Shown here in pieces: positions 2,299 to 40,730 of a DNA stretch of 43,755 bases (position 1 is the stretch's first letter; every line of letters starts with the position of its first letter). Source of the DNA: a virus. Location: the UHGV virus genome UHGV-0008389, one strand, 5' to 3'. The notes beneath the pieces are model-generated. The model was not told where the DNA came from and did not search any database. It saw only the letters and a program-made list of their open reading frames with translations. The position numbers and the translations under genes were made by a program.

Positions 2299-3054
2299 TT
2301 ATTTACCTATAGCTATCCATCGACAATAAGTTGTATTGCTACCTGATGGCTGGGAACCCATTAAGCTAAAACCAAGACCGGTACTAACGGGTGTAGCAGC
2401 AAAAGAAGGAATTGAATTTACTGAAGATTCCGTATTATCATACGACACAACAATTTGCACGGTTGAGTAGTTGGTAAATGCAATGGGGAAATTTATAAAA
2501 GTGGGAGATCCAATCGCTCCTGCCACTGAAATACCACGTTGAAAGATAGTTCCATCAGGGTAACGACACCAGCCATTTCCACTTGTAAAGCTAGACATGT
2601 CAGGAATTTGATTGGTGCCGGTCCCTACATTTCTTTTAGCCGCTTCTCCTAAACCAAGATATGAAAAAGCATCTTTCCACCCGGCACCATTGCTGTTTGG
2701 ATCAGATAGATTTCCTTCTGTTGTGTTAATGAATATTCTTTCCCCATCGTTCGAGATGAGCATCGCCCCTGACGGATATCCAGAAATCTCCGAAGCAAAT
2801 TCAGAATCAAAAGTATTCAGCGCCCCGCTGCTCGACCATCTACCCAGAGCAGAAAGTTCGTATAAAATTTGGTTCATATCCTGGCCTTTTGGCGGCAAAC
2901 CGCCAGCAGATTTCAGGATCATTGTTATTGGAGGAAACCCCAGTTCATACGATGCTGAGTTATCTCCTGCAGGAGTGGTTGGCAATATTACCCCTCTCTG
3001 TCCATTAACTCCAAATGGCTTAGGTTGTTTTTTAGGTGAGTCAGAACGATTCAT
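2299..3054 (-). CDS. Tail fibre protein
   Basis: 251 aa, Gly/Ser/Thr-rich; position between the baseplate gene and tfa. Confidence 0.65.
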   Translation of the reverse strand: MNRSDSPKKQPKPFGVNGQRGVILPTTPAGDNSASYELGFPPITMILKSAGGLPPKGQDMNQILYELSALGRWSSSGALNTFDSEFASEISGYPSGAMLISNDGERIFINTTEGNLSDPNSNGAGWKDAFSYLGLGEAAKRNVGTGTNQIPDMSSFTSGNGWCRYPDGTIFQRGISVAGAIGSPTFINFPIAFTNYSTVQIVVSYDNTESSVNSIPSFAATPVSTGLGFSLMGSQPSGSNTTYCRWIAIGK

Positions 3055-23953: not shown

Positions 23954-24488
23954 GCTCCTTCAGTTTCTCTTCAAGTAACTCTTCTGACATATCAGCATAA
24001 CGAACAGGCCCACCATCAGCGCCAGTTATTTCTGTAGATGTTTGCTCTTTAAACGCCTGAACAGAAACATGCTTACCAAGAAGTTCGAGGTTTTTGACCT
24101 TATCAGGCCATTTGATTTTCTTCAGAAGTGCGGCACTATCTGCGGATACCATCTCCACGACATCCATTCCTGATAGCGTTGTGCGCCATACCTTAGGCCA
24201 GTCTTTAATGGGTTTTAGCTCACCGTTTTGCAGGAGAATGTCGAGCACATCCATCTGGTCGATTTCAAGAAGGCGATTAAGTACGTATTCTGCATTTATT
24301 CCAACAGAGTCATTGCGTTGTGCTTTCAATTCGGAGATTCTGAATTGTATGTCAGGTTTTGACATGTTTTCGGACGCAGTACGGTTGGCTGTTTTTGCGC
24401 TGTACCCCGCCCGAATAGCCGCTTGCGTGGCGTTTAAATCGATGAGGTACTCGCGACAGAACATTTCTTGTTTGTCAGTGAGCGCCAT
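23901..24488 (-). CDS. terS: Terminase small subunit
   Basis: 195 aa; N-terminal MALTDKQEMFCREYLIDLNATQAAIRAGYS resembles phage terminase small-subunit DNA-binding regions; overlaps the terL start. Confidence 0.75.
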   Translation of the reverse strand: MALTDKQEMFCREYLIDLNATQAAIRAGYSAKTANRTASENMSKPDIQFRISELKAQRNDSVGINAEYVLNRLLEIDQMDVLDILLQNGELKPIKDWPKVWRTTLSGMDVVEMVSADSAALLKKIKWPDKVKNLELLGKHVSVQAFKEQTSTEITGADGGPVRYADMSEELLEEKLKELGNGRRSNQLESKRSDL

Positions 24489-24515
24489 ATTTTCCCCTGC
24501 TGATAAGGTAAATAA

Positions 24516-25040
24516 ATGAATCCTGAAATTTTTGAATCAAAGTTCATAATGAACGAAGCAACTTGGCAACGAATTGAAAGGTTAGTAAATACTGAAGATG
24601 ATATTGGTTTGGTTTTAAGAGTACATCTGATTACAGAAGCAATGATTGAGGCATTTTGTTGCGCCGCTGTAGGTAACCAAAATCTATTTGATGGATTTGG
24701 TGAAAACTTAACCATGACCTATGCCGCAAAAATTCAGCTAGCTGCCAACCTCGGCCTAAATGAACACTCCGTCGCAGAACTTAAACGCCTAAATAGAATA
24801 AGAAATGTTCGCTCTCATCAAATAGACAACCCGGAAATAACTGACGCAGAAATTGAATCATTACGAACATTTATTAGCCGAGGTGGTCAGGAAGATCTCA
24901 TTAACTCAGCAAGATTCGGCATAAAAGTTGGAGACATTGAGCTGAATCTTAACCGTCCAGATGCCAATAATCGTGAAAAATTCATAGCTATTCTTGGCAG
25001 CATCATCCTAAGGCTCACTAAACAAGTTGCAGGACAATAG
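24516..25040 (+). CDS. Hypothetical protein with RNxxxH (HEPN-like) motif; moron transcribed opposite to the late operon
   Basis: 174 aa, AT-rich relative to neighbours; AAGG RBS 7 nt upstream; motif LKRLNRIRNVRSHQ contains R-N-x-x-x-H; hairpin after the stop (25041-25070). Confidence 0.6.
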   Translation: MNPEIFESKFIMNEATWQRIERLVNTEDDIGLVLRVHLITEAMIEAFCCAAVGNQNLFDGFGENLTMTYAAKIQLAANLGLNEHSVAELKRLNRIRNVRSHQIDNPEITDAEIESLRTFISRGGQEDLINSARFGIKVGDIELNLNRPDANNREKFIAILGSIILRLTKQVAGQ

Positions 25041-25647
25041 AGCTCATTGACTGAGCTAATTGATTGTTTTAGCGCATAAACCTATACCACAAAATAGCCA
25101 CTTATCACGCTTCATCATTCAATTCTGGCGTGAACTGTATGCGCCTCACATTGTCGGGAGAGAAATACAGTCACTCTCCCGTCTCGATCACAAGCGGCAC
25201 AAAGCCGTTAACCAACTCATGCTGAAATCGTGACGTCTTGCTCGTAACGGTTTCGCCTGTTTGGGTGGTTAACGTGATTTGGTAGATGTTGGACATTGAG
25301 AATCTCTTTATCCGCTTGTGGGGATATCAGTTAAGTTATCCCGTGTAGGGTATAAGCCATTGTCGAGACCACTCATTGAATGGTCTCTGCAATAACCGAT
25401 GTCTTTCCATCAGTCCGCCACCACAAAGAATCTTTTTTGCCATAAGGCTGGAGGTTCATCTTTCAGTGGCTGCCAGTGTTATTTCCCCACTTACTGGCTT
25501 GGGTTGTTTCGTGGTACTGCCGTAACTGGTGGTGCACAGATTTAGTTAAATCTGTTCTCGCCTGAACTATCTTTTACATACCCGGATTGTGGGGATGTAA
25601 ATCACGGTTTCATTATCAAGCCCACCCGTAGATGGGCTTTGGAATGG

Positions 25648-26202
25648 TCACTTTGGCAGTCCGGGGATCGATATTTGCGACTGCTGCTCAAGCCTTTCGA
25701 TTCTTGCTATGAGTTGCGGTTTTTTGATCCTGCCCCAGCGGTTCAGCAAGCGTCCTGACATACTGGCAACATCCTTTTCCTTCATGAACTCCAGCATTAA
25801 CTCGTTGTGCTCTCTTTGGTATGAGTGAGCCATCTCCATCAGCCTGTCACGCATCCAATTAAATGCTTTGATAAACGCCTCTTTGATGGCGGCAGCTTTT
25901 TTGCCGGTAAACGACATGATGATGTACATCGCACCGTCTTTGGAAATTTCATATTCAACATACTGATTACCCTTGTGTTCATAGGTAACCCGCGAAAAGT
26001 TGCTGGTTAGAAATTCATCCGAACAGTCTAGCTTTTCGATTTTCTGAATGATGTGGTGATGCTGCTTGTCGAAGTAAGCTGCTACCTTGCGGGAGGTTGT
26101 GATCACGCGATCACCAGAAACAACCACCATGTCCCGGAAATCGAGATTAGCCAATTGATGATTCATAGCGTCTTTACCTTTTAGAAAGTGAGCCTGTCTC
26201 AC
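25648..26202 (-). CDS. rha: Phage regulatory protein, Rha family
   Basis: 184 aa; VVVSGDRVITTSRKVAAYFDKQHHHIIQKIEKL and FTGKKAAAIKEAFIKAFNWM match Rha-family conserved regions. Confidence 0.75.
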   Translation of the reverse strand: MRQAHFLKGKDAMNHQLANLDFRDMVVVSGDRVITTSRKVAAYFDKQHHHIIQKIEKLDCSDEFLTSNFSRVTYEHKGNQYVEYEISKDGAMYIIMSFTGKKAAAIKEAFIKAFNWMRDRLMEMAHSYQREHNELMLEFMKEKDVASMSGRLLNRWGRIKKPQLIARIERLEQQSQISIPGLPK

Positions 26203-26313
26203 AGAAAAGCCGCCCGAGAGAGGTCGCCACCTATAACGGCATTTCTCAGGCTCGCTTACTGAAAGGCTCTCGTTAATATGCGCGTGAGATGCGCTGTGAA
26301 ATTCAGATATAAA

Positions 26314-26345
26314 AAAGCCCCGCGAATGCGAGGCTAAATCCTGGT
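26314..26345 (-). terminator. Hairpin with U-tract downstream of the lysis cassette
   Basis: Plus strand TATAAAAAAGCCCCGCGAATGCGAGGC; on the minus strand an imperfect GC-rich stem followed by TTTTTTATA. Confidence 0.4.
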
Positions 26346-26509
26346 GTTTGTGATGAACTGGCTCTTATCTCAACGCAGCCCCTTACTGCGCGCCAGATGC
26401 TCAATATCAAGCATCAGCAATGAGATGTTTAATCTGGATTTACTCCAGAAGTGATCACCACCCTGTCTACAGAGCCAGATGTGAAGGATGATGAGTAAAA
26501 TTATCGCTA

Positions 26510-28748: not shown

Positions 28749-29372
28749 CTAACGTGTGACCGCATTCAAAATGTTGTCTGCGATTGACTCTTCCTTGTGG
28801 CATTGCACCACCAGAGCGTCATACAGCGGCTTAACAGTGCGTGACCAGGTGGGTTGAGTAAGGTTTGGGATTAGCATCGTTACAGCGCGATATGCGGCGC
28901 TTGCTGGCATCCTTGAATAGCCGACACCTTTGCATCTTCCGCACTCTTTCTCAACAACTCTCCCCCACTGCTCTGTTTTTGCTATATCAACCGCGCGGCC
29001 TGTACCGTGGCAATCTCTGCATCTTGCCCCCGGCGTCGCGGCACTACGGCAATAATCCGCATAAGCGAATGTTGCGAGCACTTGCAGTACCTTTGCCTTA
29101 GTATTTCCTTCGAGCTTTGCCACACCACGGTATTTCCCCGATACCTTGTGTGCATATTGCATCAGATAGTTGATAGCCTTTTGTTTGTCGTTCTGGCTGA
29201 GTTCATGCTTACCGCAGAATGCAGCCATTCCGAATCCGGCTTGTGATTGCGCCATCCCCATAGCAGCCATCACATCAGTACCGGAAAGAGAGTCAGAAGC
29301 CGTGGCCCGTGGTGAGTCGCTCATCATCGGGCTTTTTGGCGAATGAAATTTAGCTACGCTTTCGAGTCTCAT
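28749..29372 (-). CDS. Q: Late antiterminator Q
   Basis: 207 aa; MRLESVAKFHSPKSPMMSDSPRATASDSLSGTDVMAAMGMAQSQ... near-identical to lambda Q as recalled. Confidence 0.95.
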   Translation of the reverse strand: MRLESVAKFHSPKSPMMSDSPRATASDSLSGTDVMAAMGMAQSQAGFGMAAFCGKHELSQNDKQKAINYLMQYAHKVSGKYRGVAKLEGNTKAKVLQVLATFAYADYCRSAATPGARCRDCHGTGRAVDIAKTEQWGRVVEKECGRCKGVGYSRMPASAAYRAVTMLIPNLTQPTWSRTVKPLYDALVVQCHKEESIADNILNAVTR

Positions 29373-33119: not shown

Positions 33120-34027
33120 GATCTGCTCCTGTAACTATCCCATGTAAACGCAAGGGTGCATCCGCCGCCATCATTCATCCTGTCAATAACACGCTCACCA
33201 ATGAATGCAGACAGTTCATCTTTGCTCTGGTTGCTAATCAGGATTGTTGGCTTCATGTATTCATATCTGGTGTTGATAATTTCGAACATGATTAGCTTTT
33301 CAGCATCACTGCCGAACTGCACGCCAACCTCATCGATTATTAACAAGTCAGGATGCGTAAATTGCCTAATGACTTCTTCTTCAGTTCTGGTTGCGGCCTT
33401 AGACCATGTTGATTTGTACTCTCTGGCAATTTTCAACGCAGTGGTAAATATCACAGAGCTTTGATGCTCGATAATGGCGTGCCTAGCGATAGCCAGTGCA
33501 AGGTGGTTCTTTCCAGTTCCAGGCTTACCACACATGACCAGTCCGCCACCTTTTTGAAGGCGTTCAGGCCACTTACTGGCATATGCCTGGCATACCTTAA
33601 GAACTCGCTTTGCATCATCGTTAACAGGCTCATAATTCTGAAGAGTGCAATTTTTGAACCTCTCTGGAATATTGAGAGAATTCAACAAATATTCAATTTT
33701 TGATTGTCTTGCTCTTTGTTCTGCCTGCTCACGTTCAATCTCTTTCTTACGAATTTTCTCCTCAAGGCACTGTGGGCACTCAGATTTACTTGAAGTAATT
33801 CTTTTTCCTGAGATGGTCAGATATTTCTCATAGGAAGTATATTTACCGTGTTTCTCGCACTCTTCCACTGTGCTGGTAACTGACATTCCATCTGATGCTG
33901 ATCCAATTTTGCTAAACTCAAGTTTCTGTTTCAGATCAGAAATGTCATTGATTTTTGAGTCTACAAGTTGCCTTTGCAGTGCCAGATTGTAACCATTTGT
34001 CGTATTCATATTCACTCCTGCGCCCAT
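33116..34027 (-). CDS. DnaC-like helicase loader (replication protein)
   Basis: 303 aa; Walker A GKPGTGKNHLALA and IstB/DnaC-like layout; immediately downstream of O. Confidence 0.8.
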   Translation of the reverse strand: MGAGVNMNTTNGYNLALQRQLVDSKINDISDLKQKLEFSKIGSASDGMSVTSTVEECEKHGKYTSYEKYLTISGKRITSSKSECPQCLEEKIRKKEIEREQAEQRARQSKIEYLLNSLNIPERFKNCTLQNYEPVNDDAKRVLKVCQAYASKWPERLQKGGGLVMCGKPGTGKNHLALAIARHAIIEHQSSVIFTTALKIAREYKSTWSKAATRTEEEVIRQFTHPDLLIIDEVGVQFGSDAEKLIMFEIINTRYEYMKPTILISNQSKDELSAFIGERVIDRMNDGGGCTLAFTWDSYRSRS

Positions 34028-40508: not shown

Positions 40509-40589
40509 GCCGCCTGAGCGCGGCTTTACCGCATACCAATAACGCTTCACTCGAGGCGTTTTTCGTTATGTATAAATAAGGAGCACACC

Positions 40590-40730
40590 ATGCAATATGC
40601 CATTGCAGGGTGGCCTGTTGCTGGCTGCCCTTCCGAATCTTTACTTGAACGAATCACCCGTAAATTACGTGACGGATGGAAACGCCTTATCGACATACTT
40701 AATCAGCCAGGAGTCCCAAAAAATGGATAA
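40590..40730 (+). CDS. cIII: cIII (C-terminally shortened relative to lambda)
   Basis: MQYAIAGWPVAGCPSESLLERITRKLRDGWKRLIDILNQPGVPKNG matches lambda CIII as recalled, but ends 8 residues early; GGAG RBS. Confidence 0.85.
   Translation: MQYAIAGWPVAGCPSESLLERITRKLRDGWKRLIDILNQPGVPKNG

Follow-up and report, generated by a model that had tools for sequence, protein, structure and literature searches.

Stable stem-loops in the gaps of operons, on the strand that is transcribed, are typical of repetitive extragenic palindromic (REP) sequences and bacterial interspersed mosaic elements (BIMEs), and of intercistronic stem-loops such as those of malE-malF in Escherichia coli and puf in Rhodobacter. 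They lie close to the upstream stop codon, occur in more than one copy and carry compensatory changes. Hairpins with these same traits are found in the virus genome UHGV-0008389 (43,755 nt, the whole stretch analysed and hereafter the window), in the 607-nt interval 25041-25647 that separates rha from an antisense accessory gene, or moron. They differ from E. coli REP in having no sequence similarity to it and in their two-tier stem with an invariant CA/GA internal loop, and from REP/BIME-type elements in being confined to one lambdoid locus instead of scattered over a genome; mRNA stabilisation is only predicted here.

The late operons of lambdoid phages offer another comparison. Moron terminators and mosaic boundaries, reportedly treated by Juhala and colleagues in 2000 for HK97 and HK022 (as cited in PMC4104026), are likewise late-operon sites of gene turnover where conserved sequence surrounds variable genes. 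Unlike moron terminators, the hairpins described here have no U-tract, persist when there is no insert and co-occur with a separate canonical terminator; the last two properties place them in the framework that receives the morons and not in the individual morons. RNase III hairpins of phage mRNAs (the early R sites of T7, the sib and N-leader sites of lambda) are also hairpins of about 16-20 bp with a small internal loop between cistrons, a resemblance of shape only. The element is undescribed but probably conventional in kind, a conserved intercistronic family of RNA hairpins that marks slots for accessory genes.

Two members of the family, called M1 and M4 after the modules they form, lie in the interval, both on the strand of the late transcript (scores are those of R1, a covariance model of the family):

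25611-25646, minus strand: M1, type A hairpin, CAUUC-CA-AAGCCCAUC-UACG-GGUGGGCUU-GA-UAAUG (57.2 bits)
25358-25394, minus strand: M4, type B hairpin, UAUUG-CA-GAGACCAUUC-AAU-GAGUGGUCUC-GA-CAAUG (55.2 bits)

M1 begins directly past the rha stop codon and has a fold energy of -18.4 kcal/mol. The family as a whole comprises 38 distinct variants of three types (A, B and C) with a common layout: an outer stem of 5-8 bp, the CA/GA internal loop, an inner stem of 9-10 bp and a terminal loop of 3-6 nt. The internal loop is identical in all 38 variants. The 3' flank GAYAAUG is common to the variants as well, but it served as the anchor of the search.

The A, B and C hairpins are retained as base-paired structures on the late-mRNA strand. 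When the variants are aligned, 97.4% of the cells are paired, against 88.2% in shuffles and 34-47% in controls with slid partners, and the late-transcript strand has 70 G.U against 6 A.C cells, both the percentage and this ratio being inflated by a choice of instances made partly on paired stems. Changes on both sides occur at 8 of the 15 pairs, and the double changes that distinguish the types are unaffected by selection for pairing. The late strand is the more stable one in 32 of the 38 variants. Pairs are kept beyond the controls, as expected of a cis-acting RNA hairpin under selection, with the caveat that the instances were chosen partly for their ability to pair.

Only two strong copies, M1 and M4, are detected by R1 in the 43.7-kb window, and in 547 kb of related phage DNA there are one or two copies per locus. 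With the exception of one weak match of 26 bits, all matches lie on the late-operon strand and beside the core sequence described below, where that is present. A match immediately 3' of Rha was also found in the Enterobacter phage CobraSix. The DLP12 prophage of E. coli K-12 carries no copy of the hairpin, and transcript-end data sets from K-12 are therefore unusable for this element.

M1 and M4 belong to a larger block. The right part of the interval (25321-25647, about 330 bp) is 92-99% identical to DNA in P22, HK620, Sf6, HK022, ES18-like and Stx2 phages, with 192 phage records matched by megablast and 211 by blastn, and the 607-bp region, mostly through this right block, matches 2329 of 5426 complete E. 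coli genomes (about 43%). The lambdoid phages that bear the block span E. coli, Salmonella, Shigella and Klebsiella; when one genome per species was searched with a 26-mer, just 8 loci emerged, most of them E. coli contamination in metagenome-assembled genomes. Its location is constant, 3' of the gene or genes that follow the Rz/lysis cassette and 5' of the head genes. It has no annotation in most of the phage records examined and is absent from Rfam. Across 124 contexts gathered from IMG/VR and GenBank, breakpoints recur at 25650, 25600, 25530, 25400, 25370 and 25310, and the block can therefore be divided into five modules, M1 to M5, in transcript order. Those other than M1 and M4 are:

25573-25601, minus strand: M2a hairpin, UUUACAUCCCCAC...GGGUAUGUAAA
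25536-25555, minus strand: M2b hairpin, ACAGAUUUAACUAAAUCUGU
25400-25523, minus strand: M3, the core, 124 nt, non-coding, with no supported secondary structure
25321-25342, minus strand: M5 hairpin, GGGAUA-ACUUAACUGA-UAUCCC, always contiguous with M4

M2 is optional: its version of 82-84 nt is replaced in many phages by a sequence of 24-25 nt. Two variants of M2b have an A to G change in a stem arm, and both changes yield a wobble pair on the minus strand. M3 is present as 112 sequence variants in the 124 contexts, differing at only a few sites, and in P22 and E. coli 1223 it directly abuts the rha stop codon. A coding role for M3, or for M2 and M3 together, was excluded by variants that carry TAA, have lost the only plausible ATG, differ in the length of an A-run or have a 2-nt indel; a large fold of M3 was likewise rejected, as the helices proposed by RNAalifold are broken by singleton changes.

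M5 is also found in Stx2 phages, in phage Ayreon and in Enterobacter phage BHUENT6. The sequence that follows it is UUUU in most phages and CACAAG in the window, and the start of the next gene comes directly after M5. In M5 of the HK620 type (for example, positions ~2990-3040 of locus L003), GGGAUAA can pair either with an upstream UUAUACCC or with a downstream UAUCCC-UUUU, at near-equal predicted energies. The HK620 version could thus possibly form a terminator/antiterminator-like alternative, one that the window copy lacks.

Accessory genes are confined to three fixed slots of this framework: before hairpin A, between M3 and the type B or C hairpin, and after M5. At the first of these, hairpin A is preceded, at a distance of 0-14 nt, by the end of one of at least 10 unrelated genes, among them several rha alleles, the pair kilA/hkbL and even Rz. 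The second lodges, exactly between M3 and a hairpin of type C, one of five different small genes that encode 24-118 aa and include orf118 of ST64T. Some of these inserts bring, besides the hairpin, a canonical terminator of their own, and the hairpin is therefore not simply the terminator of a moron. The third slot holds hkbM in HK620, a gene of the phrog_6581 family in the window and the antisense moron pid in P22. There, the long gap left 'ORF-free' by the original P22 annotation between rha (ORF201) and ORF80 (1355-2189 of the P22 locus L004; 388964-389224 in the P22-like prophage BTP1) consists of the M3-M5 block followed by antisense pid, and the pid locus adjoins the block and starts only past M5. 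A Rho-independent terminator stabilises the transcript of pid, the moron in this same slot, and the primer used for the delta-pid deletion contains the P22 M5 sequence (PMC8835761).

The framework also recombines internally. All four allele combinations are present at two polymorphic sites of M3, which points to recombination within the block. Direct evidence of a crossover inside a hairpin comes from locus L126 (IMG/VR), where the hairpin that follows an inserted gene of 24 aa is a hybrid, with a 5' arm of type C, a 3' arm of type B and two mismatches.

We give an even chance to the reading, drawn from sequence comparison, that the conserved hairpins are cis-acting RNA stem-loops in the late mRNA which bound slots for accessory genes. 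It is favoured because strand-specific pairing, the position after a stop codon, the lack of a U-tract and the succession of hairpin, linker, hairpin and gene start all fit it. The interval would then be an untranslated spacer that the Q-dependent late transcript crosses on the minus strand between lysis/rha and terS. The framework would be read in the order hairpin A, optional M2 hairpins, M3, hairpin B, a single-stranded linker, M5 and the start of the next gene. The most likely role of the hairpins would be to act in cis, either by blocking exonucleases at 3' ends or by signalling where the mRNA is processed. Hairpin B would form the 3' end of the upstream mRNA segment, the A/U-rich linker would be the site of cleavage and M5 would become the 5' end of the downstream message. 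Accessory and lysis segments could then decay and be expressed independently of the head genes, and a gene in a slot would be insulated. The sequence that phages have in common also supplies the homology they need to exchange the contents of the slots.

Several points weigh against this reading, apart from the partly pairing-based choice of instances mentioned above. The three types may be old duplicates, in which case part of the covariation was counted between paralogues. G.T pairs stabilise hairpins of single-stranded DNA too, and the strand bias is thus not strict proof of RNA. Having no U-tract, the hairpins would make poor intrinsic terminators, while sites for RNase III or RNase E are not callable from sequence alone, and a search of the literature found no transcript ends, processing sites or stability effects for the element. 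M3 has no supported structure and no role in the model; its identity (about 97%) is matched or exceeded by the hairpins on either side, and recent spread by recombination is a sufficient explanation of it. Among near-identical rha alleles the core is more diverse than rha in a rough, ungapped comparison; the comparison with the third codon positions of rha is confounded by indels and recombination and was used only qualitatively.

Some of these observations would suit a neutral origin, in which relic terminators and decayed genes were spread by recombination, the hairpins are functionless and the slots are merely harmless places for insertion. The small gene that adjoins the block is visibly decaying, M3 shows neither structure nor coding signal, an identity of 92-99% is usual for modules that lambdoid phages share, diversity within groups of rha alleles is not lower for the core than for the gene, and RNA sequencing of BTP1 led to no annotation at the block. 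Decaying relics would not be expected, however, to carry double compensatory changes at eight pairs or to keep their pairs on one strand through single changes in the stems (the G.U excess over A.C, 70 to 6). Nor does a neutral origin account well for a CA/GA loop that is invariant in 38 variants, or for a hairpin that is retained beside canonical terminators and also follows Rha in a distant Enterobacter phage. We consider this explanation unlikely, though it is the most serious competitor of the cis-acting stem-loops.

None of M1, M2, M4 and M5 was flagged as a Rho-independent terminator by the terminator scan. The tails of the hairpins (GAUAAUGA, GACAAUGG and CACAAGCG) contain no U-tract, and only M5 of the HK620 type has UUUU, after a weak stem of 6 bp. 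Searches for known RNAs were equally negative: Rfam gave no relevant match at E <= 1 in 24000-26500, and a scan of the window at gathering thresholds found nothing relevant either, its sole match at that level being the cIII thermoregulator:

40577-40635, plus strand: Rfam Lambda_thermo (88.5 bits)

ARAGORN found no tRNA or tmRNA gene in the whole window, and a promoter scan no sigma-70-like promoter on either strand of the interval. The last result bears on the possibility that the block contains one or more independent small RNA (sRNA) genes, on either strand, expressed from the prophage or processed from the rha 3' untranslated region, with M3 as a single-stranded seed region and hairpin B plus M5 as a 3' module. 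The succession of a conserved stretch with no supported structure, two hairpins and (in most phages) UUUU does resemble the layout of an Hfq-dependent sRNA, and many sRNAs are encoded by prophages of E. coli and Salmonella (PMC4104026, PMC7067206). Besides the missing promoter, the window copy has no U-tract, and no Rfam family matches although AgvB, AsxR, STnc100 and similar sRNAs are in Rfam. Moreover, RNA sequencing of a BTP1 lysogen defined nine non-coding RNAs, none of them between rha (388358-388963) and pid (389225-389539). STnc6030 and the other BTP1 non-coding RNAs, AgvB/AsxR/EcOnc and the Pas sRNAs are all located elsewhere in their prophages, and the prophage sRNAs of enterohaemorrhagic and enteropathogenic E. 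coli lie near PR', not at the block. The block is thus probably not an independent sRNA, an explanation to which we attach a low probability.

The joining of unrelated genes at a distance of 0-14 nt from the hairpin base, with each inserted gene then followed by its own copy of the hairpin, brings to mind single-stranded DNA recombination signals of the attC or IS200/REP-like kind, which would direct the insertion or exchange of cassettes. The hybrid hairpin, with its crossover inside the loop, could be taken the same way, and the G.T strand bias also fits a folded single strand of DNA. Such a role is very unlikely: the annotated examples of the locus have no integron integrase, HUH/RAYT protein or other dedicated recombinase, direct reading of the sequence revealed no attC R or L boxes (RYYYAAC/GTTRRRY), the sole crossover falls in a stretch common to both types of hairpin, and homologous recombination in the framework, together with selection for intact genes, gives the same pattern. 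An extension of the cis-acting reading, that the framework is a dedicated cassette-docking system whose signals both mark the slots and process the mRNA so that cassettes are expressed and decay independently, is a speculative one that we think improbable.

The window represents a lambdoid prophage with its late operon on the minus strand, in which the interval is placed as follows:

28749-29372, minus-strand late operon: Q
27727-26510, minus-strand late operon: holin, lysozyme and Rz
26316-26335, minus strand: canonical intrinsic terminator between Rz and rha, AGCCTCGCATTCGCGGGGCT then TTTTTATATC (terminator scan)
26202-25648, minus strand: rha (stop codon 25648-25650)
25647-25041: the interval under study, between rha and the antisense accessory gene
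24516-25040, plus strand: antisense accessory gene (moron), 174 aa, 525 bp
24488-23901, minus strand: terS, Terminase_2
23953-22427, minus strand: terL, Terminase_6N/6C, with the portal gene next

Given this order and these strands, the late transcript must cross about 1.16 kb without a long open reading frame (ORF) between rha and terS. The terminator between Rz and rha, which contrasts with the downstream hairpins and their lack of a U-tract, suggests that rha is itself an inserted unit. The accessory gene was called HEPN-like in the original prediction, a label that finds no support in Pfam, PADLOC or NCBIfam; its only match is PHROG 5483, of unknown function, and an RNVRSH (Rx4H) motif is present in it. 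The start codons of this gene and of terS, on opposite strands, are 27 bp apart, and the gene with its 3' flank occurs in this context in 2 of the 5426 complete E. coli genomes.

It was the position upstream of terS and terL that had led the original prediction to propose a candidate cos or pac region here, and this position in the late operon, together with the richness in inverted repeats, is what the interval shares with such sites. In P22, pac lies inside gene 3, and in phages with terS of the Terminase_2 type, such as SPP1, it lies at the terS gene itself. Unlike a packaging site, the block is not tied to one type of terminase. The core precedes five TerL architectures (Terminase_3, Terminase_6N/6C, lambda GpA, an HK97-type TerL_ATPase/nuclease and an unassigned TerL of 540 aa), at a distance from terL that varies from 664 to 2176 nt, with the distance to terS varying too. 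It is present both in the cos phage HK022, about 790-1080 bp from the genome end, and in the headful-packaging phages P22, Sf6 and HK620. The block is therefore almost certainly not a cos or pac site, and the framework is independent of the packaging machinery. The window itself agrees with this, as the left part of the interval, which is specific to the window, consists of a putative pseudogene and moron flank, and the separation from terS by the 525-bp antisense gene, already noticed in the original prediction, is real (a small gene also intervenes between block and terS). That the interval is a packaging site, or an accessory packaging sequence, for the terminase of its own phage is extremely improbable. 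Among the rivals of cis-acting stem-loops, a neutral relic thus ranks first, followed by an sRNA and a single-stranded DNA recombination signal, with a packaging site a distant last.

The repeats on which that proposal drew were all found where they had been reported:

25155-25162 and 25174-25181: inverted repeat CGGGAGAG/CTCTCCCG
25321-25342: inverted repeat GGGATA/TATCCC
25359-25393: inverted repeat GAGACCA.../...TGGTCTC
25536-25555: inverted repeat ACAGATTTA/TAAATCTGT
inside 25611-25646: inverted repeat AAGCCCA/TGGGCTT
25316 and 25587: direct repeat TTGTGGGGAT

The proposal of a structured RNA survives in part, as two family hairpins with compensatory variation and a bias to the late-mRNA strand, but these are separate local hairpins and not one large fold. 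The 607-nt minus strand folds at -201 kcal/mol, against -154 +/- 7 for dinucleotide shuffles (z = -6.6), and the plus strand gives z = -6.1. Pieces folded separately against shuffles localise this excess: z is -4.1 for 25605-25650, -3.05 for 25524-25604 and, for 25300-25400 (M4 plus M5), -5.4 on the minus strand against only -2.1 on the plus strand. Minus-strand folds of the remaining pieces do not go beyond shuffles (z = -0.95 for 25400-25523, -0.17 for 25171-25300 and +0.10 for 25041-25170). Excess structure is thus restricted to M1, M2 and M4 plus M5, and since neither 25171-25300 nor 25041-25170 shows any, the GGGAGAG hairpin near 25160 lies outside any significantly structured stretch.

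Complementarity to the block or repeats of it elsewhere in the window are limited to one weak covariance-model match and two 12-mers identical to parts of M3, less than 130 nt from it:

33449-33476, plus strand: weak match (25.6 bits), a miniature hairpin that shares the outer stem and the CA/GA loop
33539-33550 and 33569-33580: the two 12-mers

These matches (33449-33580) are antisense within a replication gene and are probably due to chance.

As had been claimed, neither strand has an ORF of at least 60 aa that overlaps 25041-25647, the longest one having 57 aa (25060-25233, plus strand). The description 'ORF-free' holds at this cut-off but is partly an artefact of it and of one stop codon, because the left part contains a gene of 63 codons broken by a TGA at codon 42:

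25296-25105, minus strand: small gene of the phrog_6581 family, 63 codons (PHROG profile match)
25155-25181: GGGAGAG/CTCTCCC inverted repeat, inside the small gene and spanning its premature stop
25041-25104, plus strand: 3' flank of the antisense accessory gene

Residues 1-41 of the small gene match phrog_6581 (E = 3e-13), and a purine-rich AAAGAG lies 7 nt 5' of its ATG. At the in-frame TGA (25171-25173) homologues have TGG (Trp), and beyond it the conserved frame stays open (...ETGE*LYFSPDNVRRIQFTPELNDEA*). Erwinia phage Eho59 and the Enterobacter phages CobraSix and BHUENT6 encode homologues of 64-72 aa. In E. coli HZ13 and 1223 the gene is either cut short or contains several stops, and it therefore seems to be decaying in E. 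coli prophages. The premature stop is followed by C, and the UGA-C context is leaky in E. coli; read-through is thus possible, and judging from its frame 25105-25296 could be either a pseudogene or a read-through gene. The scan flagged a single terminator-like site in the interval, a weak hairpin at 25041-25057, and the region has no more of them than expected by chance. Homology to relatives with other genes in the moron slot ends at 25126 or 25173. The left 260 bp are thus mundane, being moron flank and an apparently decayed gene, and the interval as a whole is a composite of moron flank, a decaying small gene and a widely shared untranslated spacer.

Removing a false candidate for a packaging site is one outcome of this analysis, and the covariance model is another, as it provides an annotation marker for the slots between lysis and packaging genes. 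The block resides in textbook phages (P22, HK620, Sf6, HK022 and Stx2-converting phages), and P22 offers a ready genetic system in which to study it. If the slots do form a cassette-docking system, the traffic of morons would be guided and not a matter of random illegitimate recombination. Should the hairpins serve in processing or stabilisation, they would account for the tuning of expression along a single late transcript of 20 kb, and for the entry of accessory genes, defence and virulence morons among them, into the late operon without harm to the expression of the head genes.

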